Positions 1,391-53,995 of a DNA stretch of 64,000 bases are shown piece after piece. Under the pieces are notes generated by a model that was not told the DNA's origin, made no database searches, and saw nothing but the letters and a program-made list of their open reading frames with translations. The DNA comes from Patescibacteria group bacterium (GTDB lineage Bacteria; Patescibacteriota; Minisyncoccia; UBA6257; 2-01-FULL-56-20): positions 2,444-66,443 of the forward strand of contig JBBTVY010000005.1 in the NCBI GenBank assembly GCA_038063055.1, in the 5' to 3' direction. Every line of letters begins with the position of its first letter. The stretch's first letter is position 1. The position numbers and the translations under genes are program-made.

Positions 1391-1492
1391 ATTGCTTAGT
1401 CAGTAAATTTTACAACCGACGCTCTTTTTTCGCAAATAAAAGACAGTATCAATATAAATTGAAATTTTCTGAAAATGCCTTAGAATGAAGCC

Positions 1493-1786
1493 GTGGCGCT
1501 TACGGAAGATTATATTAAAGAGCTCAGAAAAAGAGCCAGCCAATCCAAGGTTTACAGGAAATATCAGTTGGTGGGACTTGAAATATCCCAGCTTCTCGAA
1601 GACGAAGAACATAAGTCGCTATACATAAAGCTTGCAAAGCAAAACGACGCCGACAGGCTTCTTGCCATAGCAAAAGACATATCACAGAAAAAAAACGTCA
1701 AAAATAAAGGCGCTTATTTCATGAAAGTATGCCAGGCAGTGAAAATTCGACAGAAACAGCAATTACAAAATAAAGCAAAACTGTGA
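1493..1786 (+). CDS. Hypothetical lysine-rich small protein
   Basis: ORF only; no recognisable motif; start uncertain. Confidence 0.3.
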   Translation: MALTEDYIKELRKRASQSKVYRKYQLVGLEISQLLEDEEHKSLYIKLAKQNDADRLLAIAKDISQKKNVKNKGAYFMKVCQAVKIRQKQQLQNKAKL

Positions 1787-1926
1787 TTTAAAAATAATCG
1801 TCAGATAAATAAACAACATTAAAATACTAAGACACGAAAACAGTCGAATTCCTGTTGCCTGGTATGGTTCTGCCTGGTATGGTTTGATGCGACTCACCAT
1901 AAATGTTTCGATAAAACTCAACATAA

Positions 1927-2523
1927 ATGGAAGACAAAATCCTAATTGTAGAAAATAAAAAAGAGGAGAAATTTTTGCGGACAAAAATCCGGGAATTCGA
2001 TTTCAAAAAATTTACCAAGCGCGAAATAAACGACTTTGTCGGGCGGATGAAGAAAGCGATGAAACTGGCCAATGGAATCGGATTGAGCGCGAACCAGATT
2101 GGTCTGGATATGAGGGTTTTTGTCGCCCAAGTTCCTAAAACGCGGATTAACGCAGATGAAACGCAGATAGGCGCAGATGGTATCCGCGAAAATCCGCGTA
2201 AGCATCAGCGGGAATCAGCGTTTTACGCTATTTTCAATCCTGAAATAATAAAATTCTCCAAAGAAAAGACCCGACTGGAAGAAGGATGTTTGAGTATTCC
2301 GAAGGTTTACGGAAGCGTTGAACGCCCGGAAAAATTGACATTGGCCGGGTTCGACAAAAGCGGAAAAAAAATAAAAATAAAAGCATGGGGTCTTTTGGCC
2401 AAAGTTTTCCAGCATGAAATGGACCATTTGAACGGAAAACTTTTCATAGACAGAGCGGATAAAATATATCGCGTCCCCTCTTCCGAACGCCTGAAGGAAC
2501 GTCTCAAAGACCTCGAAAATTAA
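1927..2523 (+). CDS. def: Peptide deformylase
   Basis: The three PDF motifs 'GIGLSANQIG', 'EGCLSIP' and 'HEMDHLNG'. Contains an insertion between motifs 1 and 2. Confidence 0.85.
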   Translation: MEDKILIVENKKEEKFLRTKIREFDFKKFTKREINDFVGRMKKAMKLANGIGLSANQIGLDMRVFVAQVPKTRINADETQIGADGIRENPRKHQRESAFYAIFNPEIIKFSKEKTRLEEGCLSIPKVYGSVERPEKLTLAGFDKSGKKIKIKAWGLLAKVFQHEMDHLNGKLFIDRADKIYRVPSSERLKERLKDLEN

Positions 2524-2531
2524 AAACTAAT

Positions 2532-3383
2532 ATGAAGTACGTTTTCTTCGGCACGCCTGAATTTGCGGCCATTATAATTGAAAAGCTCGCGGATGCGGGT
2601 TTAATGCCGGCGGCCGTGATTTCAAACCCCGACAGACCCGCGGGAAGGAAAAAGATAATGACCCCTCCTCCGGCGAAGCTAATCGCAAACAGAAAGAACC
2701 TGAAAATTCTTCAGCCGGAAAATCCATCTTCGATAATCGAGGAATTATCGGAATTAAAAGCGGATTTTTTTGTCGTCGCGGCATACGCGAAAATACTTCC
2801 GAAAGAAATAATTGGTATCCCCCGACTTGGAACAATAGGCGTTCACCCTTCTCTTTTGCCGAAGTACCGGGGGGCTTCTCCAATTCAAAGCGTTATTCTG
2901 GCCGGAGAAACTGAAACTGGAGTTACCCTTTATCTAATGGACGAGAAAATGGACCATGGGCCAATTCTCGAAAATTCCAAATTCCAAATTCCAAATTCCA
3001 AAATTACTTACGAGAAATTGCTTAAGGAGTTGGCGGAGCTAGCCGGCAATTTGCTTGTCGAAACATTGCCAAAATTTTTAAGCGGAAAAATAAAGCCGGT
3101 GCCGCAAAACGAATCTGAGGCGACTTACACAAATAAAATATCCACCAAAGACGCCTTTGTGGACGAAAAAAAACTTGAGGAGGCGGTCGGCGGCAAAAAT
3201 ACCAAAGCCGCTCAAGAGATAGACAAAAAAATAAGAGCGCTTACGCCAGAGCCGGGTGTTTGGACCCTTCGACAAGCTCAGGGCAAGCAGCAAAGAGTAA
3301 AGCTTTTGGAGGCCGAATTTGCCGGCGGAAAATTAACTCTCAAAAAGATTCAAATCGAAGGCCAAAAGCCCAAAACCGCATAA
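2532..3383 (+). CDS. fmt: Methionyl-tRNA formyltransferase
   Basis: N-terminal 'VFFGTPEFA' and 'HPSLLPKYRGASPIQ' formyltransferase motifs; adjacent to def. Confidence 0.85.
   Translation: MKYVFFGTPEFAAIIIEKLADAGLMPAAVISNPDRPAGRKKIMTPPPAKLIANRKNLKILQPENPSSIIEELSELKADFFVVAAYAKILPKEIIGIPRLGTIGVHPSLLPKYRGASPIQSVILAGETETGVTLYLMDEKMDHGPILENSKFQIPNSKITYEKLLKELAELAGNLLVETLPKFLSGKIKPVPQNESEATYTNKISTKDAFVDEKKLEEAVGGKNTKAAQEIDKKIRALTPEPGVWTLRQAQGKQQRVKLLEAEFAGGKLTLKKIQIEGQKPKTA
2975..3003 (+). repeat. Tandem heptamer (CCAAATT)x3-4 inside fmt coding sequence
   Basis: 'ccaaattccaaattccaaattccaaaatt' is in frame and encodes 'KFQIPNSK'. Confidence 0.8.
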
Positions 3384-3458
3384 TTTTATTACCTGTCCAC
3401 AGAATATCTCTCCGACGGCGGTCGGCGGTGATACCGCGCCGCTCTGCGGCGCGGTTAT

Positions 3459-5579
3459 TCATTTTTCCGCGGATTCGGCTGTCTCCCAAATTTCTTTGTT
3501 CACATATTGACTTACAGTTTCAAGGTCATTGAGTAATTTCTCCTCGCGCATCTTTTCCTCCACGGAAAGTTCATTTTTGAGTTTGGCGCGGCGCATTAGG
3601 TCAAGTTCCAATTCTATATCCTTTCGCAGAACGGCGAAACCCCTCTTTATCGAATCCTCGGCGTCCTTGATTGCTTGTTTTAGGCGCTGGTTTTTGAGAC
3701 GGACATGGTAACCATGATAAAGCACGAATGCCAACAACCCCACGAAAGCAAGCGCGAAGATAATGAGTAAAAACAGGTAGAAATCCTCATAACTTAAGCG
3801 GGCGCCGCCTATCTGGATAGCTGTTTTGGCAACCAGGAGGTCGAATTTAGGGCTTGGGGGACTCACATCATTGGCAACTTTAAGCTGTGTCCAAGCAATG
3901 TAGCGGCTGGCTTCCAAAAATCGCGGGAAAGAGTAGAACCAAGCGCCGTTTTCATCGGTAACCGCCACCCGATTTTCCGTGGCTCCGGTGTCAATGTTTT
4001 GCAGATAGATTAAAACCTGGGCTTGGGGCACTCCGGCATTGCCGCCGATATAGAGAATTTCATCATTGGAAATTGACTTTGGGAAAAGAGTTACCACCGG
4101 AGGGTCCAGACGAACGTTGCTTAGAGAATCCTCGGCGGCTTGGGCGTGAAGGGTAAGAATACCGAAATTCACGACAAACATCAGATAAATAAGCATTAAA
4201 CCCTTATCCACGCCCCCTTCGCCGAAGCCAGGGCGAGGAGGCGAGCCGTAATCTTTTTGTTTTTCTTTGAGTTCGGCCAGCTTCCCGGAGATATTGGGAT
4301 GTTTCAAAATGTCCTTGACAAGGTATTTATCGATTTGCAGATGTCGTTTCCAGATCCATATCATTAAATAAACCATTAATCCTAAAAGAGCCAGGGCTAA
4401 AATCAAAACGTATGGCCACCCGAAGGTAACCCCGCCGACACTCAATCCCCCCGAATAGATAACTCCCAAGAAAGGCGCGGTTATTGTAAGTTTGCTCTCT
4501 GCTTGAAAGTAGTTGCCCGCCTGGTCGTAGGCGCGGACGACAATGTCGTATTTGCCTTGGTCTAAAACCCTTGAATATGGCGAATAAGCTTCGATAAAGA
4601 ACGGCGTGGTATTTTGGGCAACCAGGGCTTCCGGCAAATCCAAAGATATAATCTTCAGTTCATAGTGGTTTATCCCGGACACAACATCGGTTGTGACAAA
4701 ATCTATAATCGGGCGGTTGTTGGAAGTAATATGGCCTGGTGAAAAATTAAGTTTGAAAGCGGCAGGCGGCGTGTTATCAACTCGAATCACGTAATCGGTA
4801 ATGCCGCCCCAAGCGCCTTGCCGCAGACTTTTAATGTGGAAATAATAAACGCCGTCGGCAAGATTATTATAAACAACGCGATTTCGCGCTTCCTCCGATA
4901 TGTCATCGGGTTCGCCCCCTGGTTCCTGGTCCAGGACATAGCTGTATCCCTGTATATCGGGCGGCGCCGTCCATTCCAGCGTCACAGTTTTTGTGTTGTA
5001 CCACTTCTCCTGGTCAATGTTAGTGCGGGAAGTGACAGTCGGCCCCTGCGGCGGCGGCAGGGTGAGATAGTAAATCCCGTTCGTAGTTTGGCCCAACGTG
5101 TCAGTTCCGCGGCCGTCATTCAGAAGCACTTTCGAATCATCCAAGATTTTCAAAACGGCAGTACCGGTGCTTTTTACGCGAAAAGTAACGGTGGAAAGCA
5201 AACCGGCGTCGGTGTTGATGCCGGGAGTCGGAATAGTTCCCTGGAACTTAAGCGTGCCGTCGGTATTGGAATAGCTTGGTTGAACGACCCAAATCTGGAT
5301 TAAAGATTTTCCCGTTGTCGGTGAAACCACCTGAAGTTTATCCGCCGGAAAACTTAGGTCCGCCTCAATCGCGTTTATTGCCTGACCGCCGGTATTGACA
5401 TAGATTGAGACCGTAAAAGTGCCGCCTAAGGTAAAAGTTCCCGATGGCGGGGCCACGTAAAGAGAGGCGGCCGCCTCGGCGGAAACTCCGGAGAAAAACA
5501 TAAAAAACGCGGCAAGCAAAATAGCGGTCTTTGCCGCTATCTCGTGGATTTTCGCCAAGTAATTCATGCGTTCAAACAA
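3459..5579 (-). CDS. Membrane-anchored surface protein with N-terminal cohesin-like domain, Ig/FN3-like region, two TM helices and a cytoplasmic coiled-coil tail
   Basis: Signal/TM at N-terminus. Cohesin-like pattern 'LYVAPPSGTFTLGGTFTVSIYVNTGGQAINAIEADLSFPADKLQVVSP...GTDGTLKFQGTIP'. Hydrophobic helices 'YVLILALALLGLMVYLMIWIW' and 'LFLLIIFALAFVGLLAFVLY'. K/E-rich C-terminus. Confidence 0.6.
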   Translation of the reverse strand: MFERMNYLAKIHEIAAKTAILLAAFFMFFSGVSAEAAASLYVAPPSGTFTLGGTFTVSIYVNTGGQAINAIEADLSFPADKLQVVSPTTGKSLIQIWVVQPSYSNTDGTLKFQGTIPTPGINTDAGLLSTVTFRVKSTGTAVLKILDDSKVLLNDGRGTDTLGQTTNGIYYLTLPPPQGPTVTSRTNIDQEKWYNTKTVTLEWTAPPDIQGYSYVLDQEPGGEPDDISEEARNRVVYNNLADGVYYFHIKSLRQGAWGGITDYVIRVDNTPPAAFKLNFSPGHITSNNRPIIDFVTTDVVSGINHYELKIISLDLPEALVAQNTTPFFIEAYSPYSRVLDQGKYDIVVRAYDQAGNYFQAESKLTITAPFLGVIYSGGLSVGGVTFGWPYVLILALALLGLMVYLMIWIWKRHLQIDKYLVKDILKHPNISGKLAELKEKQKDYGSPPRPGFGEGGVDKGLMLIYLMFVVNFGILTLHAQAAEDSLSNVRLDPPVVTLFPKSISNDEILYIGGNAGVPQAQVLIYLQNIDTGATENRVAVTDENGAWFYSFPRFLEASRYIAWTQLKVANDVSPPSPKFDLLVAKTAIQIGGARLSYEDFYLFLLIIFALAFVGLLAFVLYHGYHVRLKNQRLKQAIKDAEDSIKRGFAVLRKDIELELDLMRRAKLKNELSVEEKMREEKLLNDLETVSQYVNKEIWETAESAEK

Positions 5580-6507
5580 GGCGTTTCTTTAAAAATATTA
5601 GTACTATCAACGACAATATTATTATAATCCAAATCAAATTCTGTTTATACCAAGGCTGTGGATACCGGGGCGGCAAAACCGATATTCTTGAATTTCCCGA
5701 TTTATCCACTGCTTTAACAGTTATATCTTTATCAAGCGATTGGTATTTCAAAAGATAGGGGCTTTCGGCGACAATAAAATGGTCGGCTCCTTCTTTTACC
5801 TCATAATGGTCTATGCCGCTTCCTTTGTCTTGGGCGTTGAACGCCAAAAACCATTTCCCATCAAGAACAGATTGGTCGTTGCTTACAATCGGGGAAAACG
5901 GGTCGGGCGGAATCGTATCGGCAGGCAAGAGAAGATTGTCTGCTACGGGTGCCTCGGATATCATAAAACTAAGTGCGGAAACTTTAGTTTTTGCGGCAGT
6001 TCCGAGTCCGTCGTTTAGAAACGCTTTCACGTCTTTCATCGAAATCAGTCCGTCCGTGACCCTATCCCCTTTTACAACGAAAGAAAATAGAAATCCTTTT
6101 ATGCCATTATATCCTCCAGGTATTATGCCGGAAAAGAAAATTTCTCCGTCGCCGGAAAGATGCGGCTTTTCCACCCACAAATTGACTATGGAATTGCCGT
6201 CGTGTATTTCCTTTAAATCGAGAATGTCGTGCGGGAACACAACTTTTCCCTGAACCGCATTTATTCTCTCATAATCGGAATTGAGGAAAACGGATACTTC
6301 GAAAAGCTGTCCCACTGCTGCGGTATTGGCCAGCGATGAAAATTCAAAAGTGGCGGCCCGGGCTGTTGATAATGTGCCAGCCGCGATAGACAAAGCAAGC
6401 AAAAAAGCAACAGCAATACGCAATGTCTGTGAATTTGAAATTTTGAATCTGGAATTTGGCATAAATGATTTATAATTAGAATTCTCTAGTTTTTTTAATA
6501 AAAGCAT
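5572..6507 (-). CDS. Cohesin-like domain protein with C-terminal TM anchor, paralogue of the adjacent gene
   Basis: Signal peptide. 'ATFEFSSLANTAAVGQLFEVSVFLNSDYERINAVQGKVVFPHDILDL' parallels the N-terminus of 3459..5579. C-terminal 'LIWIIIILSLIVLIFL'. 8-nt overlap with the downstream gene. Confidence 0.55.
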   Translation of the reverse strand: MLLLKKLENSNYKSFMPNSRFKISNSQTLRIAVAFLLALSIAAGTLSTARAATFEFSSLANTAAVGQLFEVSVFLNSDYERINAVQGKVVFPHDILDLKEIHDGNSIVNLWVEKPHLSGDGEIFFSGIIPGGYNGIKGFLFSFVVKGDRVTDGLISMKDVKAFLNDGLGTAAKTKVSALSFMISEAPVADNLLLPADTIPPDPFSPIVSNDQSVLDGKWFLAFNAQDKGSGIDHYEVKEGADHFIVAESPYLLKYQSLDKDITVKAVDKSGNSRISVLPPRYPQPWYKQNLIWIIIILSLIVLIFLKKRLV

Positions 6508-6853
6508 TTAGCAACTTATGAACGACAATTGACTGCTTCGAGAGATTGTCAAAATCTTCAGAATTAATATATTTAATGTCCCGCGCTATCAAAATTTGAT
6601 TTTGTAATTCTGTCAACGAGCCATGAGATATTGAATAGAATTGGATTTTCTCTTTCGCAGAATGTCTGGAAAACCCTTCGGCAATATTGGAAGTTATAGA
6701 AACCGCTGCGCGCCTAAGCTGTGAAATCAACCCAAAAGTTTCTTCTCTTGGAAAAGATTTAGTTAAACCATAAATCATTAAAACTAGTTTATGGGATTCT
6801 CTCCATACCTCTAAATCGGTAAATGATTTTATTTTGCTAATGCTATATTCCAT
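6476..6853 (-). CDS. Four-helix-bundle protein (23S rRNA intervening-sequence protein / Avd-like family)
   Basis: 125 aa. Motif 'EVWRESHKLVLMIYGLTKSFPREETFGLISQLRRAAVSITSNIAEGFSRHS' typical of TIGR02436/PF05635. Confidence 0.7.
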   Translation of the reverse strand: MEYSISKIKSFTDLEVWRESHKLVLMIYGLTKSFPREETFGLISQLRRAAVSITSNIAEGFSRHSAKEKIQFYSISHGSLTELQNQILIARDIKYINSEDFDNLSKQSIVVHKLLNAFIKKTREF

Positions 6854-6882
6854 ATTCTAAATTCTAAATTCCAGATTCCATA

Positions 6883-7986
6883 CTAACCTGTCCAGTAGAA
6901 CGCGAGTACGCTGAAATCGTCCAAATTAATCTTATTGTCGACTTTTAAGTCCAGACTGGATGGCGGATCCGAACGATTATACCAGTAGGCCAGTATCGAA
7001 AAATCGACAATGTTGATTTTGCAATCACCGTTCAGGTCCCTGAACAAGCTGGAACAGGAAACCTGCTGTTTGGCGGTCACATTTTTGGTTCCGACAATAA
7101 AGTTAACAATATTTCCGTAACCGCTGGCTTCAAGATTTCCTATGGAAGCTTTTGATTTCGCCGAGTACGAGCCATAATCGAGAACGGTCGTGTCGAAATT
7201 ATATAAATAAACTCCGTTCTTGTCCGAAATTGTCTTGCCAAAAAAATTTGGACTGGAAGATATCGTTATGACAATATCGGATTGCGGCGAACTTTGGCCG
7301 AAAATAATTATATCGTCCCCTCTTTTCACTTCCTCTTTGTCGACCTTGATTGTGGGCGCTATAAAAATACCGGTAACGTTCATGGTTATCCCATAAATCA
7401 CGCTGACCGGAAAAGCAAGGAGGCTGGAACGGACGTCGTTTTTGTCTTCGCCATAAAAAGAAAAAATATAATTTCCCGCGGAAATATTAGATAAGGTTAT
7501 CTGAAACAAAGCGTCGCTTCCGGCGATTGTCGTCGCCGCAACCTGAGCGTCTTTAAGAAGAGTCACTTCGCTTGAAGGATAGGCTCTTCCTGAAAAAACA
7601 ACTTGCGTCGGTGAGATAAAATATCCTCCCCCGCCACCAACGCCGACAACTCCACCACCGCCTCCGCCGCCAACGGTGCACGCGGAGGTGTCGAATGTGC
7701 AATCGACTTTACATCCTAAAATTCCTCCGCTAAATCCCTGACTGACGCAAGATTGTCCGCCAAGCGCGGCATCATCGCATTGCTCGCCTGCATCCAATAT
7801 CGCGTTTCCACACACTGAAGGAATCGAAGCGCTGATGTTTACGGAAGCCGCGAAAACAACTTGGTTATAATTTAGAAAATAGTCCGCCAAAGGCGTATCC
7901 GCTTCCGACGGAAAAACCAAAAATAAAATCGAGGCGAAAAATATTATCAGGGAAATCAATAAAAACCTGGAATAATTATTTGTCAT
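6883..7986 (-). CDS. Secreted/membrane-anchored Cys- and Gly-rich protein with C-terminal type-I dockerin module
   Basis: N-terminal TM. Cys-rich block 'CGNAILDAGEQCDD'; poly-Gly tract. Two dockerin Ca-binding repeats 'DLNGDCKINIVDFSILAYWY' and 'DLKVDNKINLDDFSVLAFYW'. Confidence 0.6.
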   Translation of the reverse strand: MTNNYSRFLLISLIIFFASILFLVFPSEADTPLADYFLNYNQVVFAASVNISASIPSVCGNAILDAGEQCDDAALGGQSCVSQGFSGGILGCKVDCTFDTSACTVGGGGGGGVVGVGGGGGYFISPTQVVFSGRAYPSSEVTLLKDAQVAATTIAGSDALFQITLSNISAGNYIFSFYGEDKNDVRSSLLAFPVSVIYGITMNVTGIFIAPTIKVDKEEVKRGDDIIIFGQSSPQSDIVITISSSPNFFGKTISDKNGVYLYNFDTTVLDYGSYSAKSKASIGNLEASGYGNIVNFIVGTKNVTAKQQVSCSSLFRDLNGDCKINIVDFSILAYWYNRSDPPSSLDLKVDNKINLDDFSVLAFYWTG

Positions 7987-8120: not shown

Positions 8121-9092
8121 CTACTCCTTGTTTTCTATTTTCATATATCTCTCAATAACTCGCTGGTTATATTTTTTTACACCCCTCGTGGCTATCCAGA
8201 ATATCAAAAGCAACAGAAGCACGATGGGGACGATAATCTGCCAGGTCACCACGAAAAAACCGATTTCACCGTTAACCTGTTTATTCATGTTCCCGCCGTA
8301 ATTCAAAGACAAAACAGCCCTGTAAAAGCCGAATCCGAAGCCGCCCCATCCCGCTGATTCCGGAGTCGCTCTTATTTCTTTTTGGGAACGCGGGAGTATT
8401 TCCGCCCCATATCTGTTCACCGAAAGAATGGCGCTGGTTATTCCGAATACGTTTTTTATTACTATCTTTCCGCTCGGTTTAAGGTACACGTTGCCCGTGT
8501 TTTTAAAAACTATGTTGAAATTATCGGGTATTCGACTGAAAAGCCTGCTCCCGTCGGCGGTGTCGAATTTGTCTATCAGCGCGGTTTCCTGAATCTGGCC
8601 CGAAACATTCAGATAAACCAATATGCCCGCCCTGGTGACTATCGACGTGCCTCCGCCGCTGTTGTCGGGGGGTGAAGTTCCCCACCAGATGACCGCGAAA
8701 TGCCCGCCCGGCGGGGCGTCTTCGGGTATCTTTAAAATGTACGGCACGTCTTTGGATTCCCCGGTTTTTAGCGGCACGCCGTTTTCAATTTTAAACCAGG
8801 AACTCAAATCGGTGCGCTCGCCGGCCAAAAATTGTTTCTCGCCGTTCGTTTCCGTAAATTTTTCAAAAGAAGGATAAAGGGTCTGCTTTTCTCCTCCTTC
8901 GTTCATTAAAAAAAGTTTTCCTTCGATAACGCTCCCGGGGTCAAGACTGAATTCCATTTTAGCCGGGCCGACTGTCAGCGCCCTGGAAACATTCGGCAAA
9001 AAACCGGCGAACGCCAACAATGTCACGAAAATCGCCGAAAGAAACTTATTCTTCATTATGAAAAGAATACCACCCGCGAAGAGATTTTTCAA
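8121..9092 (-). CDS. Surface protein with signal peptide, Ig-like/PapD-like extracellular region and C-terminal TM anchor. Candidate assembly chaperone (DUF916-like)
   Basis: Signal 'FLSAIFVTLLAFAGFL'; beta-rich 'MEFSLDPGSVIEGKLFLMNEGGEKQTL'; C-terminal 'IIVPIVLLLLLIFWIA' followed by a basic tail. Confidence 0.45.
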   Translation of the reverse strand: MKNLFAGGILFIMKNKFLSAIFVTLLAFAGFLPNVSRALTVGPAKMEFSLDPGSVIEGKLFLMNEGGEKQTLYPSFEKFTETNGEKQFLAGERTDLSSWFKIENGVPLKTGESKDVPYILKIPEDAPPGGHFAVIWWGTSPPDNSGGGTSIVTRAGILVYLNVSGQIQETALIDKFDTADGSRLFSRIPDNFNIVFKNTGNVYLKPSGKIVIKNVFGITSAILSVNRYGAEILPRSQKEIRATPESAGWGGFGFGFYRAVLSLNYGGNMNKQVNGEIGFFVVTWQIIVPIVLLLLLIFWIATRGVKKYNQRVIERYMKIENKE

Positions 9093-9110
9093 CCGAACGA
9101 TTGAACTGGT

Positions 9111-9776
9111 TCAGTTAGCAAGGCAACTATAGGTGATAGTATCGACATACGTTGCGCCTGGAGTGGAAGAGGCAATGGCCGCGCCGTGAGTCACAATTAT
9201 TTCCCTGGCGCTTGTTGTGGCGCTCGTTGAGGCAAGAATTTGCGTGGTCGTAGTTAATCCTCCGAATATTAAAGTAGTTGTCGCGTAATTGTATCTTGGT
9301 CCCATTGAAAATTGTGCTCCCGCTCCGATGGTCGTTGTAGCCGACTGTACGCCGTATCCTTCCGTTCCTGCAGCGAGCGTTGCCGAAGCGTTAAAGGCCG
9401 CGTTAGGAGATTCGATAAGACTGTTACTGCTTGAAGAGTACAGTCCTCCGCCGGTCGTGCTGCTTCCGGTGTCGTTGATGCTCAAAGTGCAGCCGAGAGA
9501 ACTATTGGAGCAAGCCATCGTGCTGGAAACCTGTGGAGTTGAAGTCGAAATGCCGGTCAGGGTCCCGAACAAGGTGGTTGTCGTGCTGACGCTGCAGCTT
9601 ATGCTTACCGCCACCGAGGCGTTGACGTTCACGGCGGAAGAAGTGGCGGCGGTCGCGAATTCCGGCGAAATTGCCTGCCTGAGGAGGTCGCCGAACCAGC
9701 TTAAAACAACAAAAGCAAAAACCAAACCGATAGCCGACCAAAAACCGATGTTTTCTTTATTATTAAAACTCGTCAT
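9111..9776 (-). CDS. SCPU (spore coat protein U / Csu-type pilin) domain protein with N-terminal TM/signal
   Basis: 'ISCSVSTTTTLFG' (C..s....FG) and C-terminal 'GATYVDTITYSCLAN' (G.Y.DT.T motif). T/S/A-rich beta-protein. Confidence 0.55.
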   Translation of the reverse strand: MTSFNNKENIGFWSAIGLVFAFVVLSWFGDLLRQAISPEFATAATSSAVNVNASVAVSISCSVSTTTTLFGTLTGISTSTPQVSSTMACSNSSLGCTLSINDTGSSTTGGGLYSSSSNSLIESPNAAFNASATLAAGTEGYGVQSATTTIGAGAQFSMGPRYNYATTTLIFGGLTTTTQILASTSATTSAREIIVTHGAAIASSTPGATYVDTITYSCLAN

Positions 9777-9914
9777 TTGATTGAATTGATTTAATCAATG
9801 ATAATATGATGCTTTTCGACTTGGGTAGATTATAACATATGAGGTTTTAAGAAGATGTGGATAACTCCAACAGGGTAATAGGGTTTTAGGGGTTAGGGTA
9901 TAGAGTATGCGGAT

Positions 9915-10274
9915 TTAGCGTTTATTTTTTAGTTTTTTAATTAAAACAAACAACATTTTTTGAATCTCTGTAAGTAAATTTCCGGCTTTTAAAACATCAA
10001 CTTCGGGGTAAATGCTTTTGATGAGAATAATTTGTGTTTCTAATTCTGCGGCCGAAGCATCTGCAACACTCAAAAATTGTAAATATTCTCCTAACCCATG
10101 CCTTTTATAGCCTTCCGCAATATTTGATGGTACAGAAACAGCCGATCGTCTTATTTGACTAACCAATCCATAAATTTCACTTTTGGGAAGTTTATTGCTT
10201 AAATCGTAAACCTCTTTTACTAATAAAATAGATTTCTTCCAAACTTCTAATTCTTTATAAGATTTTAAATACAT
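9915..10274 (-). CDS. Four-helix-bundle protein (23S rRNA IVS protein / Avd-like), second copy
   Basis: 'ELEVWKKSILLVKEVYDLSNKLPKSEIYGLVSQIRRSAVSVPSNIAEGYKRHG' matches the PF05635/TIGR02436 pattern. Confidence 0.7.
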   Translation of the reverse strand: MYLKSYKELEVWKKSILLVKEVYDLSNKLPKSEIYGLVSQIRRSAVSVPSNIAEGYKRHGLGEYLQFLSVADASAAELETQIILIKSIYPEVDVLKAGNLLTEIQKMLFVLIKKLKNKR

Positions 10275-10324
10275 TTGTATTATACCCCCTACCCTTTTAC
10301 CCTACTACCCTATAACCCTATACC

Positions 10325-13114
10325 CTAGTTACTAACACAGCTAAACGTAATCGTGTCCGCATAGACCCCGCCGGTTGCGCTTGCTCCTACTGTGGCTTTG
10401 TGGGTAACCACTACTTCCCTGTTGGTTACGGCGGCAGTTGAAGAAGCGAGAATCACCGTAGTCGTGGCAAGGCCTCCCACCGTGTTGCCGCTTTGGAGAT
10501 AGCGGATATTCAGAGTAAGCGTTCCTCCGCTCCCGGCTGTTGTCGTGGCTCCCTGAATTCCGTAACCGTCGGTATTCGCGGCAAGGGTCGCGGTGGCGTT
10601 AAAAGCGGCATCCGGCGATTTGATTAAGTAGTTGATTGTCGTGGACGCGTACAATCCCCCGCCGGTGGTACTGCTGCCGTTATCGTTGACATAAAGAACA
10701 CAGCCAAGCGCTCCGTCGCAAGACATGGAAGTCGATGCGTTGGGAGAAGAAGTGAAGATGCCAGTCGTGTCTATCGTGCCGAAATCCGTGCTCGAAGCGC
10801 TGGCGGAACAGGAAACGGTTGCAGTCGGAGTGAAAGATGCGACTGCGTAAACGGAATAAGTCGTTAAACCCGTTCCGGCGTCGCTTACTCTGAAATAATA
10901 AGTCGCCGAAGAGGCGTTGGAAGTGGACATAATTGAATATTCAACTTCGGTAAATCGGATTCCGCTCAGAAGTTCGGAGTTCGCCTGATTTCTGCTTGTG
11001 GTCGCCACAACTTCGGCGGCGTTGAAAATTATGTTTTCGTCGGTCGTTCCTCCGGTGGAAGTGGCGATGTTCGTGGTTGCCGTGCCATCGGCAACCAAAC
11101 TCGACGTGGACATTTGCCACTCTCTCGTGCCTGCGGTCGAAGTCGCCAGTTGCGTCCACGTTCCGGAAGTAGAGTTGGCCTGATATTCTATTCTGAATTG
11201 GGCCGAACTGGTGGCATCGCCCTCGTTTGAAATTTCAAAACGCAGGCGCTTGACGGTTCCGATTCCTTGTATCGACAACGAAGTGTCTTCGCTGGCCGCC
11301 GCCGTCGAGGTCGCTTCACTGCCGTCGTCGTTGCGCCAATGGTAGTGGATTTGGGTCATGTTGGCGGCAAGGATGCTGGTTTGGCCGTATATGTTATAGC
11401 TGGCGTCGTTAATGCAGCTGCTTGTGCACCGGACTGAATTGACAACACTAGCCGAGAAGCCGGCCGACGAAGTGGCTGAAAAGGACTCGCCATAAGTATT
11501 TTCTAAGGTATTCGGGAAGCTGTAACTCGTGGTCGCGTTGTTTATACCCAATTCGAGAAATTGGGCCGCGACACCGTTGCCGGAGCTGCTGTCGTCGTAT
11601 TCGCCGTCAAGCCAGGCCCATTTGGCCGTGGTTGATGAGTCGGCGAGGGTTGTATTTATGCTTGTCGTTGCAAAACTGGTTCCGACCGACATATTCGATT
11701 GCGCCAAAAAAGAAAGATAATTGTTAAGGTTGGCGTTCGCCACCGGAGAGTTCGTATGGTCATAGCTCCAAAAAAGTTTCATGCCGCGTATGCTTGTGGC
11801 GCCAGAAGTGCTGAACGCCGAACAAACTATTTTGTCGCCGCCCGTTGTGGTCGCCAAATTGGCGGCAACGTTCCAAACAGGAGTTGCGTAACCGGTGGTG
11901 TCGTTGGCGGGCGGCGTTTCGGTTATGGCGGTTGTCGTCAGGTTTGTGCAGGGCGTGCCAGGGCCGAGAGTCGCGTTCATACCCGGATTCGCGGTTGCGG
12001 TGAAATTTGTCCTGCCTAAAAGAAACGCGTTAGTTGATGAAGGAGAGGTTTCTGGAATATTTATCGTGGTAGTCGCCAGCAGCGTAGCCGTACTCGCGGT
12101 GTTGGTATTTTGCATTAGCCAAACCTGGATGTTTTTGCGGAGTTTCGAACTTGCGTTGAAATTGAAAGTGTATGTGGCGACTGCGACTGCGTTGGGGTTG
12201 CTTAAAGAATTACTACTTATACTTTGCATTTTAAAAGTGTGATTGCCGGAAGGAGAAGCATCAGCGGTTGTCGGACTATTCAACATTAAAACGCTGTAAG
12301 AATCCCCTAATTGCGCGAAAGTAGCGGCGCTTGTCGCCTCCGAATCCCATCCTACGCCGACCGTTATCGCCGTCGTAGTCGAAATCCTCGCCCTGAATTC
12401 GGCCCAAAATTGGTTCGAGGAACTCGCGCCAACGGAAAAAGTCGTTGTGGCGCCGCTTTCCGGCAAACCGAAATTGAAATTCGCCGAAGTTACCAGCGCC
12501 TTGCCCATCTGCGAGCTGGTGGCGAACACGAATCTATAGTCGGTGTTTACCTGCGTGGGGGCAAACGGGTCATAGTCATAAGTAATAATAAGTTTTGCGC
12601 TTTCCGCGGACCGCGTGGGACCGGTAATTTTCGTGGTAAATATCATCGCGTAAGTTCCGCTGGCGTTGCCGATTAACGTTTGCATGGCGCTTGTCGCGTC
12701 AAGCCGAAAAGCAATCCATCTGTTCTCGGCGCTGTCGGTCAAAGTGCTCGGACAAGTCAAACTCTGGGCGATTCCGCCCTGAACGTTCAAAGTAAATGTA
12801 CAGGCCGAAATGCTTGCGGTGCTTGGGTGCGTATTATAAGAAATATACGCCGAACGGATTGGCTGGGAGGTGGGAACCATATCCGGAAGCGCGATGACAA
12901 ACGCGTAAGTCGACGTTACTCCGTTTGCGATGGGGGTCGTGGAAATAATCGAACCGATAAAAAACTCGATTGTCTTGGTTTTTGCGGCGGCTTCGGCGAC
13001 TTGAACCTGAAGAGTTAGGTCGCGCGATTTGAAACTCGATAAAAAATCAACCGGCGCGGGAATGGCGATAGTGGAAATCAAAAGCGCTACCAGAAATTTT
13101 CTTTTGGTATTCAT
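10325..13114 (-). CDS. Giant (929 aa) secreted T/S/A-rich adhesin-like protein ending in an SCPU/Csu-pilin-like domain
   Basis: Signal peptide 'LVALLISTIAIPAP'. C-terminus 'VSCSASASSTDFGTIDTTG...GGVYADTITFSCVSN' is paralogous to the C-terminus of 9111..9776. Confidence 0.6.
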   Translation of the reverse strand: MNTKRKFLVALLISTIAIPAPVDFLSSFKSRDLTLQVQVAEAAAKTKTIEFFIGSIISTTPIANGVTSTYAFVIALPDMVPTSQPIRSAYISYNTHPSTASISACTFTLNVQGGIAQSLTCPSTLTDSAENRWIAFRLDATSAMQTLIGNASGTYAMIFTTKITGPTRSAESAKLIITYDYDPFAPTQVNTDYRFVFATSSQMGKALVTSANFNFGLPESGATTTFSVGASSSNQFWAEFRARISTTTAITVGVGWDSEATSAATFAQLGDSYSVLMLNSPTTADASPSGNHTFKMQSISSNSLSNPNAVAVATYTFNFNASSKLRKNIQVWLMQNTNTASTATLLATTTINIPETSPSSTNAFLLGRTNFTATANPGMNATLGPGTPCTNLTTTAITETPPANDTTGYATPVWNVAANLATTTGGDKIVCSAFSTSGATSIRGMKLFWSYDHTNSPVANANLNNYLSFLAQSNMSVGTSFATTSINTTLADSSTTAKWAWLDGEYDDSSSGNGVAAQFLELGINNATTSYSFPNTLENTYGESFSATSSAGFSASVVNSVRCTSSCINDASYNIYGQTSILAANMTQIHYHWRNDDGSEATSTAAASEDTSLSIQGIGTVKRLRFEISNEGDATSSAQFRIEYQANSTSGTWTQLATSTAGTREWQMSTSSLVADGTATTNIATSTGGTTDENIIFNAAEVVATTSRNQANSELLSGIRFTEVEYSIMSTSNASSATYYFRVSDAGTGLTTYSVYAVASFTPTATVSCSASASSTDFGTIDTTGIFTSSPNASTSMSCDGALGCVLYVNDNGSSTTGGGLYASTTINYLIKSPDAAFNATATLAANTDGYGIQGATTTAGSGGTLTLNIRYLQSGNTVGGLATTTVILASSTAAVTNREVVVTHKATVGASATGGVYADTITFSCVSN

Positions 13115-16417: not shown

Positions 16418-19213
16418 TTATCGAATTCCTAATAACGGCCCAAAGGCACTTAACACTTGGGCGAAAAATCCCTGATTAACCGGTTCAATCATTGAACCCG
16501 GGCCGAACTGCTGGCATGCCGGATCCTGATAATTTTGCATGCAGTAGGCCTGGCATTCTTCGGGAGTTTTGCAGCCGCCTGGTCCAGTAAAATCAGCGCC
16601 ACCATCTCCCGATGTCGGCGTTTGCGATTGATATGCAGTACAACGAGAGTCACCTATATTGGCCTTACAAAATTCTTCCCATGAAGAGTATCCCTGCGGA
16701 ATCGCCGACTGGTCCCCGCCTTGTTGCTGTTGTACCCCACTATCTCCGCCCTTGGGCTGGCAGGACTGAAATTTAGCTTGAACAGACGGGTCGGGTGTTC
16801 CCTGCTGTTGTTCTCCGTCGCCACCGCCACCGCCTAAAGAATTAAGGCAGGCCTGAAATTCACCGCATGATTTAGTAAGACACGCGTTAACTTTTTCTTT
16901 TTGGCAGGCCTGGACTTTCGCATTAACTTTTGGATCGGGCGTACCTTGCGCTTGTGGCTGGCCGCTCGGCGCTTGATCGCCACCTTGCTGGAGAGACTTC
17001 ATGCAGGCGTCAAATTCCGAGCAAGAAAACGCAAGGCAAATATCTATCTTCTCCCGAAGACAGGATAACGCTCTTGCCTGTACTTTTTTCCCGCTTTCGT
17101 CCTGTGGTCCTTCTTGTCCGGATGATTGCTGATTGCCCTTAGGCAAAGCGTCAAAACACGAGTTGAACTCGGCACAGGTGGCTTTACTTAAACAGACCTC
17201 AATTTCTTTACGGATATCCTGACCCATCAAGCTCTCGCATTTTCTCTGTGCTGTTTCTAAGGCGGGTGACTTTGCTTCTGATTGTGTTATTTTTCCGGCC
17301 TTGAATCGTCCAAAAAAAGAGGGACCCAATTCTTTCTCCATGCAGGCAAGCCACTCTGGAGGAGCTTTATCAAGTGATGTCATAAACTTACGCTGTTCTT
17401 CAATGTTTTTAAGATCTTCTTCGCTGAGCATGCCGTGGTCCTTAGCCCAGTTAAAGCAGGTGTCCTGGTTAATGACACAGAATGCCTCACAGTCGGCTTT
17501 GCTCTTGCAACCGCCGGGGCCCGAGGTGATTTTAAATTTTTTGGCCATTTCCGCTTCTTCTTTTGAGATAAAGCCGGCGCGCACCGCAAAATCCACACAC
17601 TCATCAATGTGCGCTTCACTTTTGCAGTAACTGTCACACGCCTCTCGCGACCTGCAATTCCCCGGACCCTTACCGCCGGTTTTCTTCACGATATCGGCTT
17701 CCTCTCTTGTCATAAAACCAACTTTCACTGCAAAATCAATGCACTCATTAGTGTGAGTGTCGCTCGCGCAATAGGCATCGCATGATTCTTTTGTCGTGCA
17801 TCCGCCGGGCAACTTTCCGCCGCTCTTAAGATACGGGAGTATTTTATTGACCGCCTCGGCGTCTTCTTTTGGTATAAATCCGGCTTTCTGGGCAAATTCC
17901 ATGCACACAACCGCATTAGCCGAGTTTTCACAATACTTCAAACAACTTTCTTTGGTTTTGCAGTTTCCCGGAAACGCCACGCCCGCCTTTTTAACATCGG
18001 TTATCTTGCGTATTTCTTTTAATTCGTCGGCACTGGCCAATTTAAACTTTTCCACAAAATTGACGCATTCCTCCAGGTGGTCAATGTCTTCGCAGTATGT
18101 TCGGCAGGCAACCTCATCTTTGCACTGGCCGGGACTTTCTCCTTTTTCCATTGCCGCAAAAACACCTTTTTTCTCCTCAGGCACTTCTATCGTTAATCCG
18201 ACTTTTTTGGCAAATGTGACACATTTTGAGTAATTGCTTGATACACTGCAGTAGGTTTTGCAATCTTCTTGGCTACCACAACTCCCCAACTCTACTACCG
18301 GGTATGCAATGGCCACTGGTTCAGGTATTAACATTCCCCGTGGTTCAGATGTCTGTGGTTCAGACCCTAGATACGACTGACACCTGCTATCGTTGCCCAC
18401 ATTGAATGTGGACACAATTTCTGATTGACTCAACGTCCTGTTGTATACGGAAACCCCACCGATCACGCCGAAGAAAGGTTCGGCAGCGCCACCCCGGTCC
18501 CATGCCCCGAGCGTGAATGGCGCCTCGCTTGTGGTGTTGGCGCCCGGAGCTTCGGCGGTTCCTTTCAGCTTGCCATCTACATATAATTTCATGGTACCGG
18601 AGCCGTCTCTCGTAGCAACGACATGGTACCAAGTATCCGTGTTAATAGTCGTAGTGATTTTACCTCGGGATTCGCCAGAGATACCGGCGGATTCTCCTGC
18701 AAAAAACTCCAACATTCGATCATCCCCGCCCGCTTTCAGCCAATATCCATACCCGGGACCTCTCACTGGATAATTTGACTTTCTGATGATGTTACCTGCG
18801 GGTATTCCACTGCCGCGGAGCCCCAAACGAAACCAAACTTCCAATGAAAACGGGCCTGTTCCAAAATTTAAACTCTTGGAATTTTCCATCCTGATATATC
18901 CGCTGGATCCATCAGGATGAAAATTATTCCCATTTTCCCAAGAACGAATAGTGACTCCGCCATGGATCGTTCCATTATTTCTCGCCTTCATATCCGCGAC
19001 GGTTTTCATCTCCGAGGCGGTTTTCCCCGTAACCGTATCTCCATTCCACCGACTAACCAAACCAGAAGGGGGTTCTGGGCAAATCTTTCCAGATAGTGAG
19101 GTCTGTCCAATTCCTTCTCCTTCGTTTTGAGCAAAAACGATATAAGTGCTGACTAAAAACAACAAGACTATTATTGATGGGAATATAAAAGTTTTCTTCG
19201 GAGAGATTGGCAT
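16418..19213 (-). CDS. Large secreted protein: N-terminal signal, LamG/concanavalin-like domain, about 8 tandem Cys-containing ~45-aa repeats, C-terminal Cys-rich Q/G-rich region
   Basis: 'MPISPKKTFIFPSIIVLLFLVSTYIVFA' signal (internal start preferred over the listed 19429 start). 'WYHVVATRDGSGTMKLYVDGKL' LamG hallmark. Repeats of 'C..YC......C..FA.K.G....E'. Confidence 0.6.
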   Translation of the reverse strand: MPISPKKTFIFPSIIVLLFLVSTYIVFAQNEGEGIGQTSLSGKICPEPPSGLVSRWNGDTVTGKTASEMKTVADMKARNNGTIHGGVTIRSWENGNNFHPDGSSGYIRMENSKSLNFGTGPFSLEVWFRLGLRGSGIPAGNIIRKSNYPVRGPGYGYWLKAGGDDRMLEFFAGESAGISGESRGKITTTINTDTWYHVVATRDGSGTMKLYVDGKLKGTAEAPGANTTSEAPFTLGAWDRGGAAEPFFGVIGGVSVYNRTLSQSEIVSTFNVGNDSRCQSYLGSEPQTSEPRGMLIPEPVAIAYPVVELGSCGSQEDCKTYCSVSSNYSKCVTFAKKVGLTIEVPEEKKGVFAAMEKGESPGQCKDEVACRTYCEDIDHLEECVNFVEKFKLASADELKEIRKITDVKKAGVAFPGNCKTKESCLKYCENSANAVVCMEFAQKAGFIPKEDAEAVNKILPYLKSGGKLPGGCTTKESCDAYCASDTHTNECIDFAVKVGFMTREEADIVKKTGGKGPGNCRSREACDSYCKSEAHIDECVDFAVRAGFISKEEAEMAKKFKITSGPGGCKSKADCEAFCVINQDTCFNWAKDHGMLSEEDLKNIEEQRKFMTSLDKAPPEWLACMEKELGPSFFGRFKAGKITQSEAKSPALETAQRKCESLMGQDIRKEIEVCLSKATCAEFNSCFDALPKGNQQSSGQEGPQDESGKKVQARALSCLREKIDICLAFSCSEFDACMKSLQQGGDQAPSGQPQAQGTPDPKVNAKVQACQKEKVNACLTKSCGEFQACLNSLGGGGGDGEQQQGTPDPSVQAKFQSCQPKGGDSGVQQQQGGDQSAIPQGYSSWEEFCKANIGDSRCTAYQSQTPTSGDGGADFTGPGGCKTPEECQAYCMQNYQDPACQQFGPGSMIEPVNQGFFAQVLSAFGPLLGIR

Positions 19214-19214
19214 A

Positions 19215-19454
19215 TTATTCAAAAGGGTTTTTATAAATTGTATCAAAGGGATTTTTTTGTTCTTTGAAGGGATTAGTATCCGGCACCTGACCCTGAAGTT
19301 GGTTTTGTGTCTTGTCAAAAATTTCGCTCCCCAGCGAAGGAACTCCTTCCGAAGACGGGGCTTGCTTACTCTTTGACCAATACCAAAAACCGACCCCGCC
19401 GACCGCGAGAACCAATACAGCGACAACAATAGAGATGAGTTTCTTATTACCCAC
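19215..19454 (-). CDS. Small single-TM membrane protein
   Basis: 'LISIVVAVLVLAVGGVGFWYW' TM; abuts the start of the large protein. Confidence 0.4.
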   Translation of the reverse strand: MGNKKLISIVVAVLVLAVGGVGFWYWSKSKQAPSSEGVPSLGSEIFDKTQNQLQGQVPDTNPFKEQKNPFDTIYKNPFE

Positions 19455-19662: not shown

Positions 19663-20904
19663 ATGAAAAAAATACTTTTCCTTACTCTTATTGCGGTCAT
19701 CGCGCTGGTTTCCGTAAGCGCGGTCTTGGTCGCCTCAAGCGCCAGCGACCGTTTACCCGGGCAGGTGCTCGTCAAATTTAAAGAAGGTACGCCCGCGCAT
19801 ACAGTTGAAGCGGTTATTAATTCCGGCAGAGGAAAAATTGCCGATAGAATCGAAGCGCTCGGCGTTTTGGTGGTAAGCGTTCCGGCGGCTCAAGAAGAGA
19901 GAGTCGTCGCCGCGCTTTCCCGCAATCCGCACGTTGAGTACGCGGAGTTGGATTATCTCGCCTTCGCCGTGCTTACTCCAAACGACCCATCTTTTGCGCC
20001 GAATCAGTGGGGATTGGAAAACACGGGACAGAGTATAGGAGGACAGGAGGGTTCGGTGGATGCTGATATTGATGCTCCCACTGCCTGGAATACGACTCTG
20101 GGTAGCAGTAGCGTGCGGATAGCCATTCTCGATTCCGGTATTGACCAAGACCATGAGGACCTCTCCGCTAAAATTGTTGTTCATCGGAATTTTACGACTT
20201 CTACCACAACTGACGACCTCTACGGTCATGGCACTCATGTAGGAGGAATAGCGGCGGCTATAACCAATAATGGAATTGGAGTTGCCGGGGGCTGTCCGAA
20301 TTGCGTTTTAATGAACGGGAAGGTGCTGGGCGATAACGGCTCCGGAGCATACTCGTGGATAACCAATGGAATCATCTGGGTGGCTGACAACGGCGCCAAA
20401 GTGATTAACTTGAGCCTCGGCGGAACCTCTCCTTCCAAGACACTGGAGAGAGCGGTGAATTATGCCTGGAACAAGGGCGTGGTGGTAGTGGCAGCGGCAG
20501 GAAACTGCGGCTGCAGGCAGAAAATTTATCCCGCCGCATATAAGAACGTGATTGCGGTTGCCGCAACCAACAATCTGGATAAAAAAGCGTCTTTCTCGAG
20601 TTATGACGCGCGCTGGGTGGATATAGCGGCGCCCGGAGAAAACATCTTCTCGACTTTTCCGAACCACGCATTTTACATCCAGACACTATACGGCCGCTCC
20701 CAGAACTACGATTTTGCGAACGGGACCTCCATGGCTTCCCCAATGACTGCCGCCGCAGCCGCGCTTGTTTGGTCAACCCCTTACGGGACATCGGCCGCGG
20801 CAGTGCGGTCGCGCTTGGAACAAACAGCCGACAAGATTGGCGGCACCGGAACATATTGGTTCTCGGGACGGGTCAACGCCGGCGCGGCGGTTGCGCCTCA
20901 ATAA
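19663..20904 (+). CDS. Subtilisin-like serine protease (S8) with signal peptide and propeptide
   Basis: Asp/His/Ser triad motifs 'DSGIDQDHEDL', 'HGTHVGGIAAA' and 'GTSMASP'. Confidence 0.85.
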   Translation: MKKILFLTLIAVIALVSVSAVLVASSASDRLPGQVLVKFKEGTPAHTVEAVINSGRGKIADRIEALGVLVVSVPAAQEERVVAALSRNPHVEYAELDYLAFAVLTPNDPSFAPNQWGLENTGQSIGGQEGSVDADIDAPTAWNTTLGSSSVRIAILDSGIDQDHEDLSAKIVVHRNFTTSTTTDDLYGHGTHVGGIAAAITNNGIGVAGGCPNCVLMNGKVLGDNGSGAYSWITNGIIWVADNGAKVINLSLGGTSPSKTLERAVNYAWNKGVVVVAAAGNCGCRQKIYPAAYKNVIAVAATNNLDKKASFSSYDARWVDIAAPGENIFSTFPNHAFYIQTLYGRSQNYDFANGTSMASPMTAAAAALVWSTPYGTSAAAVRSRLEQTADKIGGTGTYWFSGRVNAGAAVAPQ

Positions 20905-22345: not shown

Positions 22346-23362
22346 TTATAGAATTTTTATTTGGGACAAAGAAACATACTGGTTGATGAGTAAAATGCCG
22401 ACAACAAGAAGAAGAATTAGAAGTCCATTCATTATAAGGCGCGCGTGCTGAACTTCTATTTTTACGAATATATTAAGCGCAAGGGCGATAATGGTGAGGA
22501 GTCCGGCCGCATAAAATAGGTAATTTAAAGTTTTTCTCGGAGATGCCGTAATTGATTCTATGCTTCCCGTCTTATCCGAAACGCCCGCTATGGTTCCGGG
22601 CCTTGAAACCGAAGAAGAATCAGCCGCAACTTCATCTCCTTTTACGGCAACAAACCCCGCGGAACCGGAAGTACCGGCAACTGTTTCATCTTTTATGATT
22701 GAAAGCTGGGCAGGATAACCGGCAGCCGATGTCTGTTTTATTCCCGGCAACGGCGCTTCGGCGGCATAGGACTTTGCCGGTCTGCCGAAAAACTGCACAA
22801 CAAAATTTGCCTCCCGTCCCTTATAGATTCCCTTAGCGGCGGCAACGCCTATTTCGGTAAAATTGACGCTTAAAACATTTTCCCTGTGCGACGGCGAACT
22901 CATCCACGCGTTTACCACGTCGCTTGAATCAATGAAATTAACCGCCAAATTTTCCCCGGCGTAAGAAAACTTGTAGCCGACATCCGCGAACCAATACCAT
23001 GGCGCAACGCCGTCAGGACTTGTATGCGCGAAATACCCTTTTTCGGCCATATCTTTGACCTTTTCCATCGCAGCCGCATCAAGGAGAGAATTTCTTTTAA
23101 GCGAAGTTAGATTATAAAGCTCCCTGCTTGTATTTGTTTCATCGACAATCGCGCCGGGCATTATAAGCCCAAAAAATCTCGAATCCGGGAGAATAAAAAA
23201 CGCGCCCAGCAAAAACATGATTTCCGCGCCGGCAAGGATAATTGCCAGAAAAAGCACCGATTTGCTTCTCAAAATATGCGGTTGGTCGTCGTTTTCCTCA
23301 TGAGGAATGAAATATTTTTTGAACCAGGCGAACACGTCCGCATTATACAATACAACAAACAA
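22346..23362 (-). CDS. Membrane-anchored CAP (SCP/PR-1-like) domain protein
   Basis: N- and C-terminal TM segments. 'HTSPDG...GENLA...WMSSPSHRENVL' CAP-domain signature. Confidence 0.6.
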   Translation of the reverse strand: MFVVLYNADVFAWFKKYFIPHEENDDQPHILRSKSVLFLAIILAGAEIMFLLGAFFILPDSRFFGLIMPGAIVDETNTSRELYNLTSLKRNSLLDAAAMEKVKDMAEKGYFAHTSPDGVAPWYWFADVGYKFSYAGENLAVNFIDSSDVVNAWMSSPSHRENVLSVNFTEIGVAAAKGIYKGREANFVVQFFGRPAKSYAAEAPLPGIKQTSAAGYPAQLSIIKDETVAGTSGSAGFVAVKGDEVAADSSSVSRPGTIAGVSDKTGSIESITASPRKTLNYLFYAAGLLTIIALALNIFVKIEVQHARLIMNGLLILLLVVGILLINQYVSLSQIKIL

Positions 23363-50618: not shown

Positions 50619-50625
50619 TGGGTTA

Positions 50626-50703: not shown

Positions 50704-50713
50704 CTTCGTAAAA

Positions 50714-53988: not shown

Positions 53989-53995
53989 GGTGTTG

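Follow-up and report, generated by a model that had tools for sequence, protein, structure and literature searches.

The DNA analysed here, referred to as the window, is a 64-kb stretch from a Patescibacteria/Parcubacteria metagenome-assembled genome (MAG). On its minus strand, between positions 3459 and 13114, eight co-directional open reading frames (ORFs) follow one another with small gaps or overlaps; in the direction of transcription these are big929, a four-helix-bundle ORF, sm221, mid323, doc, a further four-helix-bundle ORF, coh2 and coh1. The subject of this study is a trio of these genes: doc (6883..7986; 367 amino acids), which encodes a protein with a dockerin, and coh2 (5572..6507; an ORF of 311 amino acids that overlaps coh1 by 8 nt) and coh1 (3459..5579; 706 amino acids), which encode proteins with cohesin domains. 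All three were found on the minus strand exactly where a first-pass annotation of this DNA had placed them, and all other genes and protein domains of the cluster given below lie on that strand, too. Together with mid323, sm221 and big929, these genes belong to a larger conserved cluster, of which the trio makes up the downstream half. The exact Doc protein is on record as a hypothetical protein of a 'Patescibacteria group bacterium' MAG, and the nearest relatives of doc and coh1 originate from Candidatus Liptonbacteria.

Cohesin and dockerin modules of the trio

Coh1 is composed of a signal peptide, a cohesin domain, two FN3/Ig-like domains, a first transmembrane segment (TM1), a loop, TM2, a second beta-sandwich ectodomain, TM3 and a helical tail. 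The cohesin domain (5055..5474; residues ~36-175) scored 36.6 bits against the Pfam model Cohesin, PF00963 (residues 52-168; gathering cut-off 24.1), and the same model was found in most coh1 orthologues. A search of the PDB with the single coh1 sequence gave no match and a profile of the coh1 family reached a cohesin only at an E-value of 0.043; therefore, a comparison of folds was needed to settle the identity of the domain. In an AlphaFold2 model of coh1, calculated with 63 orthologues, the predicted local distance difference test (pLDDT) had a mean of 82 and exceeded 90 over residues 40-170. The top PDB match of this model in Foldseek was the cohesin+FN3 part of GH84C from Clostridium perfringens (2w1n; E 5.6e-13), in which a cohesin is followed by an FN3/Ig domain, as in coh1. 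When the single domain was compared with CohA2 of Clostridium acetobutylicum (6kge_A, a complex with a dockerin), the TM-score was 0.78 with a root-mean-square deviation of 2.4 Å over 148 columns. In the model, the N-terminal domain of coh1 thus adopts the fold of cohesins, which is a nine-stranded beta jelly-roll, as the first-pass annotation had expected of a structure prediction.

Hydropathy assigned to coh1 a signal peptide and TM segments at residues 391-409, 461-479 and 602-620, followed by a charged tail of 86 amino acids (3462..3719; residues 621-706). The first two segments and the predicted cytoplasmic loop between them are encoded by 4143..4409. Shorter coh1 orthologues of 575-592 amino acids are devoid of residues ~367-490, i.e. 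of TM1, loop and TM2, and their N-terminal ectodomains run straight into the second ectodomain; both the long and the short form are consistent with the second ectodomain lying extracellularly. AlphaFold drew the tail as two long helices, and many of its residues are invariant or nearly so over the 63 orthologues.

Coh2 has a signal peptide, a cohesin-like domain (5980..6354; residues ~52-176), an Ig-like domain (Big_13/OmpL47-like) and, by hydropathy, a C-terminal TM helix (residues 288-306) with a tail of 5 amino acids. Its true start is probably the ATG at 6462 (M16). Coh2 itself had no match in a Pfam scan and PF00963 was matched weakly by 3 of 19 orthologues, but the comparison with coh1 makes it a clear paralogue, albeit a short one: BLASTP aligned the cohesin parts at an E-value of 4e-16 and the Ig parts at 4e-7, and hhalign aligned the two families over the cohesin, the Ig domain and the TM helix with a probability of 100% (E 1.2e-40). 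A hidden Markov model (HMM) of the coh1 cohesin domain found coh2 at an E-value of 1.5e-19, and with this HMM coh1 and coh2 were the only two proteins with cohesin-like domains in the window. Two claims made earlier from the DNA alone, that the two adjacent proteins begin with paralogous cohesin-like domains and that both are membrane-anchored, were thus borne out; the suggested check against PF00963 succeeded with coh1. Both proteins had also been credited with cytoplasmic coiled-coil tails, which agrees with the helical tail of coh1 but not with the five residues left in coh2.

Doc consists of a signal peptide, a Cys-rich head (7672..7818; residues ~57-105), a poly-Gly linker, a stalk of two Ig-like domains (7087..7608) that resembles Big_6 and Ca_tandemer adhesin extenders, and a C-terminal dockerin module (6886..7047; residues 314-367). 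The earlier description of the dockerin protein as Cys/Gly-rich therefore fits its head and linker. The module contains two repeats of a Ca-binding loop and a helix, DLNGDCKINIVDFSILAYWY and DLKVDNKINLDDFSVLAFYW; both repeats recognised in the first-pass annotation are present, at residues 317-336 and 346-365, within the last 54 residues. Dockerin_1 (PF00404) was matched by 54 of 55 members of the doc family, the best at an E-value of 5.4e-9, and relatives of doc scored 30-35 bits. A profile of the C-terminal module retrieved solved, enzyme-borne dockerins first (E 1.6e-5), with both repeats covered, and the three best PDB sequence matches of doc were all dockerins, with weak E-values. The Ca positions 1, 3, 5, 9 and 12 read DNDND for loop 1 in 68 of 74 orthologues and DNDDD for loop 2 in 44 of them. 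At the level of the family, the identification as a dockerin is firm by sequence profiles, and the two-repeat dockerin claimed for doc is supported to this extent.

The remainder of doc resembles a small adhesin. Foldseek with the doc model returned generic tandem Ig/FN3 adhesin domains only, and for the stalk these were the extender domains of MpIBP, SiiE and Bap; Ca_tandemer was matched in 30 of the 55 family members. In the head, five Cys are invariant across the family and a sixth is nearly so. This head is similar to the Cys-rich acidic repeat TIGR02232/DUF4215 (TIGR02232 was matched in 7 of the 55 members), and the Cys-rich head module is also found in DPANN archaea and Myxococcota.

Because cellulosomes are the context in which cohesins and dockerins are most familiar, one has to consider that the trio might be a minimal system of the cellulosome or amylosome kind, by which enzymes for the degradation of polysaccharides are gathered on the cell, and a few members of the doc family do match the CelK model, weakly and via the dockerin. 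However, domain scans of doc and its variants revealed no catalytic module and no carbohydrate-binding module (CBM), each cohesin protein has a single cohesin, the 64-kb window has a single dockerin, and a scan of 38 ORFs of the window detected no family of carbohydrate-active enzymes (CAZymes). With neither enzyme nor CBM modules and with single cohesins and a single dockerin, an enzyme scaffold of this kind is effectively refuted at this locus and we consider it highly improbable. The non-cellulolytic setting noted in the first-pass annotation is thereby corroborated, whereas its cellulosome-style scaffold is only half right: the modules are real, but one dockerin gene and two single-cohesin genes do not make a scaffold for many clients.

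Gene order across the Parcubacteria

Loci gathered via doc, from metagenomes (through the family alignment) and from assemblies, amounted to 79 non-identical loci. Counts for coh2 refer to loci in which the sequence continues downstream for at least 1.5 kb, and counts for coh1 to those in which it does so for at least 4 kb. A scan of genome contigs with the single doc protein had returned mostly unrelated loci with just the Cys-rich repeat in common and one true orthologous locus, L001. The coh2 gene lies directly 3' of doc in 52 of 52 informative loci, in one of them overlapping by 4 nt, and coh1 comes next in all 27 that are informative for it; on the 5' side, doc is directly preceded by a homologue of mid323 in 48 of 51. 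When three distant homologues of coh1 served as the starting point instead, the order of a dockerin-ending gene, coh2 and coh1 was recovered in 3/3 loci. This near-absolute synteny is a strong argument, drawn from gene order, for functional coupling of the trio. The trio is a highly conserved, lineage-wide feature of the Parcubacteria. The first-pass annotation had spoken of a system repurposed in a small-genome organism, which is accurate as far as the non-cellulolytic context is concerned but too narrow, as the system is not unique to this genome.

The proteins that carry the dockerin differ much more than the order of the genes. At this position they range from 166 to 652 amino acids. In locus L117, a dockerin protein of 437 amino acids matches doc over residues 317-367 only and is nevertheless followed by coh2 (E 9e-69) and coh1; with the dockerin as the sole common part, it is the module itself that is linked to the two cohesin genes. 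The dockerin is near-invariant across paired doc/cohesin loci, and near-invariance extends to both of its helices (DFSIxAYWY and DFSIMAYYWTG). When 1.84 billion representatives were searched with a dockerin-only profile, 1101 proteins were found at E ≤ 1e-10; with few exceptions among the top 150, the module forms the extreme C terminus, and most of these 150 proteins combine a common Ig-Ig stalk with differing N-terminal heads.

The two cohesin genes can also be one. In locus L119 (7001-9907), coh2 and coh1 are fused into a single ORF of 968 amino acids with cohesins at residues 29-157 and 327-464 and with every TM segment kept, so coh1 and coh2 act as parts of one unit. The TM helix of coh2 and the signal segment of coh1 persist in this fusion as a TM hairpin, and the protein occurs on several contigs. 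The shortest dockerin protein, of just 166 amino acids, is encoded in locus L120. The dockerin proteins of L119 and L120 have in common a small N-terminal head motif, F-I/L-RDPVI ... GFLY, that is unlike doc. In L117, the stretch 1-6640 contains three tandem mid323-like paralogues ahead of the dockerin protein, which outside its dockerin bears no relation to doc.

A probable cohesin-dockerin tether of the envelope

Taken together, sequence and synteny make it probable, in our judgement, that the trio is a dedicated, non-cellulosomal and Ca2+-dependent cohesin-dockerin tether of the Parcubacteria envelope. The predicted topology puts the cohesins of coh1 and coh2 outside the cell, on two (coh1) or one (coh2) Ig/FN3 spacers. 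Doc would be exported by the Sec system and, after removal of its signal peptide, be retained on the cell by binding of its dockerin, in the presence of Ca2+, to the cohesin at the membrane-distal end of coh1 and/or coh2. Stalk and Gly linker would then push the lineage-variable head outward from the membrane in the fashion of a small adhesin, and the conserved cytoplasmic tail of coh1 may tie the complex to a cytoplasmic partner. As to its role, the adhesin-like parts and the lifestyle of the candidate phyla radiation (CPR) make it most likely that the system serves to attach the cell to a host or substrate, or to organise the envelope. Much of bacterial diversity belongs to the CPR/Patescibacteria, most of which are thought to be attached to other cells. 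To our knowledge, the surface machinery of the Parcubacteria is barely known and there are almost no cultured members. The locus therefore offers a testable candidate, in that a conserved cluster combines recognisable interaction chemistry (cohesin-dockerin), a WxLIP-like anchor, an adhesin-type stalk and an exchangeable head.

Several observations weigh against such a tether. Binding of doc to the cohesins is the central inference of the model, and synteny, while it speaks for functional coupling, is no proof of direct contact. Doc itself reached only 17.1 bits against PF00404 (E 0.006), where the gathering cut-off is 22.9, so that the profile check proposed in the first-pass annotation succeeded with the family but fell short for the protein of the window. 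Its loop 2 reads D-K-D-N-D, with a Lys at position 3. In the AlphaFold model of doc, residues 300-367 have pLDDT values below 50-70 and are drawn as strands. Cleavage of the signal peptide is inferred from A-x-A-like sites after the hydrophobic segment. Finally, doc proteins are ~55-60% identical across classes of the Parcubacteria, which would be unusual for a host-specific adhesin.

Some of these points would suit another explanation, in which the modules are true homologues of cohesins and dockerins yet do not bind each other and are co-operonic as parts of one envelope structure. The contacts would then lie elsewhere, with peptidoglycan, an S-layer, WxL-like proteins or the host surface. 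The low-confidence model of the dockerin agrees with this, the other surface proteins of the cluster could serve as partners, and Ca loops of the DxNxDG type also occur in FG-GAP/VCBS repeats; indeed, a few doc family members match FG-GAP_3. On the other hand, two repeats at the extreme C terminus together with the profile matches are the marks of a dockerin and not of propeller repeats, and it is the dockerin itself that accompanies the two cohesin genes in L117. Moreover, we know of no characterised co-occurrence of cohesin and dockerin that does not involve mutual binding. We therefore consider it unlikely that the modules do not bind one another.

If they do bind, the stoichiometry may differ from that of a simple tether. 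One dockerin could engage both cohesins at once, one by each of its near-symmetric repeats, to give a 1:1:1 clamp at the membrane in which the head of doc is secondary; this is a variant of the tether. It would account for the constant presence of two different cohesin proteins per dockerin gene, for the fusion in L119, for the near-invariance of both dockerin helices and for a dockerin protein as small as that of L120. Symmetric conservation is, however, equally expected of ordinary dual binding, where a dockerin engages a single cohesin at a time, and the combination of variable head, Gly linker and adhesin-type stalk is suggestive of cargo on display. A simultaneous clamp thus appears rather improbable to us, and the tether in its general form remains the reading that we favour.

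Assembly of extracellular proteins by cohesin and dockerin outside of cellulose degradation is known from the glycoside-hydrolase toxins of C. perfringens. There, the modules are borne by secreted enzymes, whereas the cohesins of the trio belong to TM proteins that lack catalytic domains and its dockerin to a small protein that resembles an adhesin; in addition, and unlike in C. perfringens, the genes form a fixed operon of one dockerin and two cohesins that is kept across a CPR lineage. As in the trio, a cell-bound cohesin holds a dockerin-bearing partner at the surface in the anchoring scaffoldins of cellulosomes and in the scaffoldins of Lachnoclostridium. A genome survey described the latter as TM-anchored single-cohesin scaffoldins with C-terminal TM helices in a presumably non-cellulolytic member of the genus (PMC11557425). 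Compared to these scaffoldins, the trio is devoid of an SLH or sortase anchor, of CBMs, of enzyme clients and of a multi-cohesin scaffoldin, and coh1 has in addition three TM segments and the conserved cytoplasmic helical tail. Within the CPR, the envelope protein SEML1_0315 of the Saccharibacterium Southlakia epibionticum is like doc in that it has Ig-like domains and is reported to contain a dockerin; it was essential in transposon sequencing (PMC10633639). As an orthologue of doc it was rejected, since it has 927 amino acids, a different architecture and no adjoining cohesin genes.

Non-cellulosomal cohesin-dockerin pairs as such are already known, and NCBI names relatives of the trio 'cohesin domain-containing' and 'dockerin type I repeat-containing'. 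In literature searches on cohesins or dockerins in the CPR, Patescibacteria or Parcubacteria, we did not find this system described, and we found no paper on a fixed Parcubacteria operon of one dockerin and two cohesins, on its conserved cytoplasmic tail, on the exchangeable heads or on linkage to a WxLIP-like cluster. If docking is true, the trio would be a fixed transmembrane complex of one dockerin and two cohesins outside of polysaccharide degradation. It would give a handle, by antibodies, tagged dockerins or landmarks in cryo-electron tomography, on envelope building or host attachment in ultra-small cells, and protein engineers would gain a cohesin-dockerin pair that is compact and orthogonal.

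The upstream half of the cluster and the rest of the window

Upstream of doc, mid323 (8121..9092) encodes a protein with a signal peptide, two beta-sandwich domains and, by hydropathy, a C-terminal TM helix. It is followed against the direction of transcription by sm221 (9111..9776), which encodes a small secreted protein, and big929 (10325..13114), which encodes a large, Ser/Thr-rich secreted protein. The mature part of sm221 corresponds to the C-terminal domain of big929; over the final 163 residues of big929, sm221 shows 54% identity (E 4e-49). A Pfam scan of the mid323 protein of the window gave no match. The profile of its family, as compared to EfmWxLIP1 of Enterococcus faecium (PDB 9i25/9i1y), gave an E-value of 5.6e-4 over most of both proteins, and PF06030 was matched by 6 of 15 family members, the best at 6.3e-5. 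Judged from these profiles, mid323 is like a distant WxLIP protein (DUF916/DUF3324). For the domain common to sm221 and big929, searches of Pfam and the PDB with the sm221 family profile gave no WxL match and no consistent family; an alignment revealed no W-x-L motif in the sm221 and big929 copies of the window, and some short relatives carry 'WTL'.

WxL clusters of Firmicutes encode a small protein, a large protein that ends in the same domain and a TM-anchored protein with two Ig domains (PMC10599100). This layout of the WxL/WxLIP clusters (DUF916-DUF3324; PMC10599100) is the same as that of sm221, big929 and mid323. Cohesin or dockerin genes are not described in the known WxL clusters, whereas the trio adjoins the genes here. 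Filing the upstream half as a WxL cluster was rejected, as the domain common to sm221 and big929 had no WxL match; nevertheless, 8121-13114 could be a distant CPR counterpart of the WxL/WxLIP loci of Firmicutes.

In the tether model, the trio, the WxLIP-like mid323 and sm221/big929 would form one conserved surface structure. It is tempting to speculate further that an attachment organelle specific to the Parcubacteria has the trio as its membrane-spanning base and is made up of a 1:1:1 clamp of doc with coh1 and coh2, a swappable head, outer WxL/WxLIP-like fibres of mid323, sm221 and big929, and an inner partner bound via the tail of coh1. We hold this elaboration to be a long shot; if true, it would be a new use of cohesin-dockerin chemistry, linking the host-contact surface to the cytoplasm of an episymbiont.

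The two remaining ORFs of the cluster, at 6476..6853 and 9915..10274, encode four-helix bundles of the '23S rRNA intervening sequence protein' type (PF05635/TIGR02436). Both are flanked by imperfect inverted repeats, one of 18 nt (89% identity) and the other of 23 nt (78%), so that the cassette regions extend over 6445-6878 and 9869-10330. The arms around the ORF at 6476..6853 are at 6445-6462 and 6861-6878, and the left arm spans the probable start codon of coh2. In related loci, ORFs of the '23S rRNA intervening sequence' type are found at other intergenic sites of the same cluster or not at all, and the closest relative locus, L001, is without any PF05635 ORF. They look like insertable, hairpin-bracketed cassettes between protein genes, and the one at 6476..6853 is not a member of the trio.

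A GC-rich hairpin at 3433..3455, with a 10-bp stem that contains 9 GC pairs, is located between coh1 and the convergent gene fmt and is likely the terminator of the cluster. In a scan for promoters and terminators only this hairpin stood out, and otherwise no more was found than in shuffled sequences; an Rfam scan of the window gave three tRNAs only. Elsewhere in the window are housekeeping genes for EF-Tu, EF-G, SecY, FtsH, PrfB and FtsX, along with PilB/PilC-type genes and several further secreted proteins. The type IV pilus machinery at 31271-33578, ~18 kb away from the cluster, consists of a PilC-like (T2SSF) and a PilB-like (T2SSE) gene, which are a candidate for another attachment apparatus in the window. 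Many secreted proteins are encoded around 16-27 kb. A surface protein of 1223 amino acids with Lamin-tail and PG_binding_1 domains (23434-27105) contains internal tandem repeats of ~515 nt in three copies that are 61-86% identical, and near it are the genes of a Laminin_G_3 protein of 1003 amino acids (16418..19429), an S8 subtilase (19663..20904) and a CAP-domain protein (22346..23362). Finally, a direct repeat of 91 nt is present at 50616-50706 and 53986-54076, ~3.4 kb apart; its copies are 96% identical and contain an internal palindrome (GAATATACGAAT ... ATTCGTATATTC), and the repeat is possibly a small element of mobile or regulatory nature.

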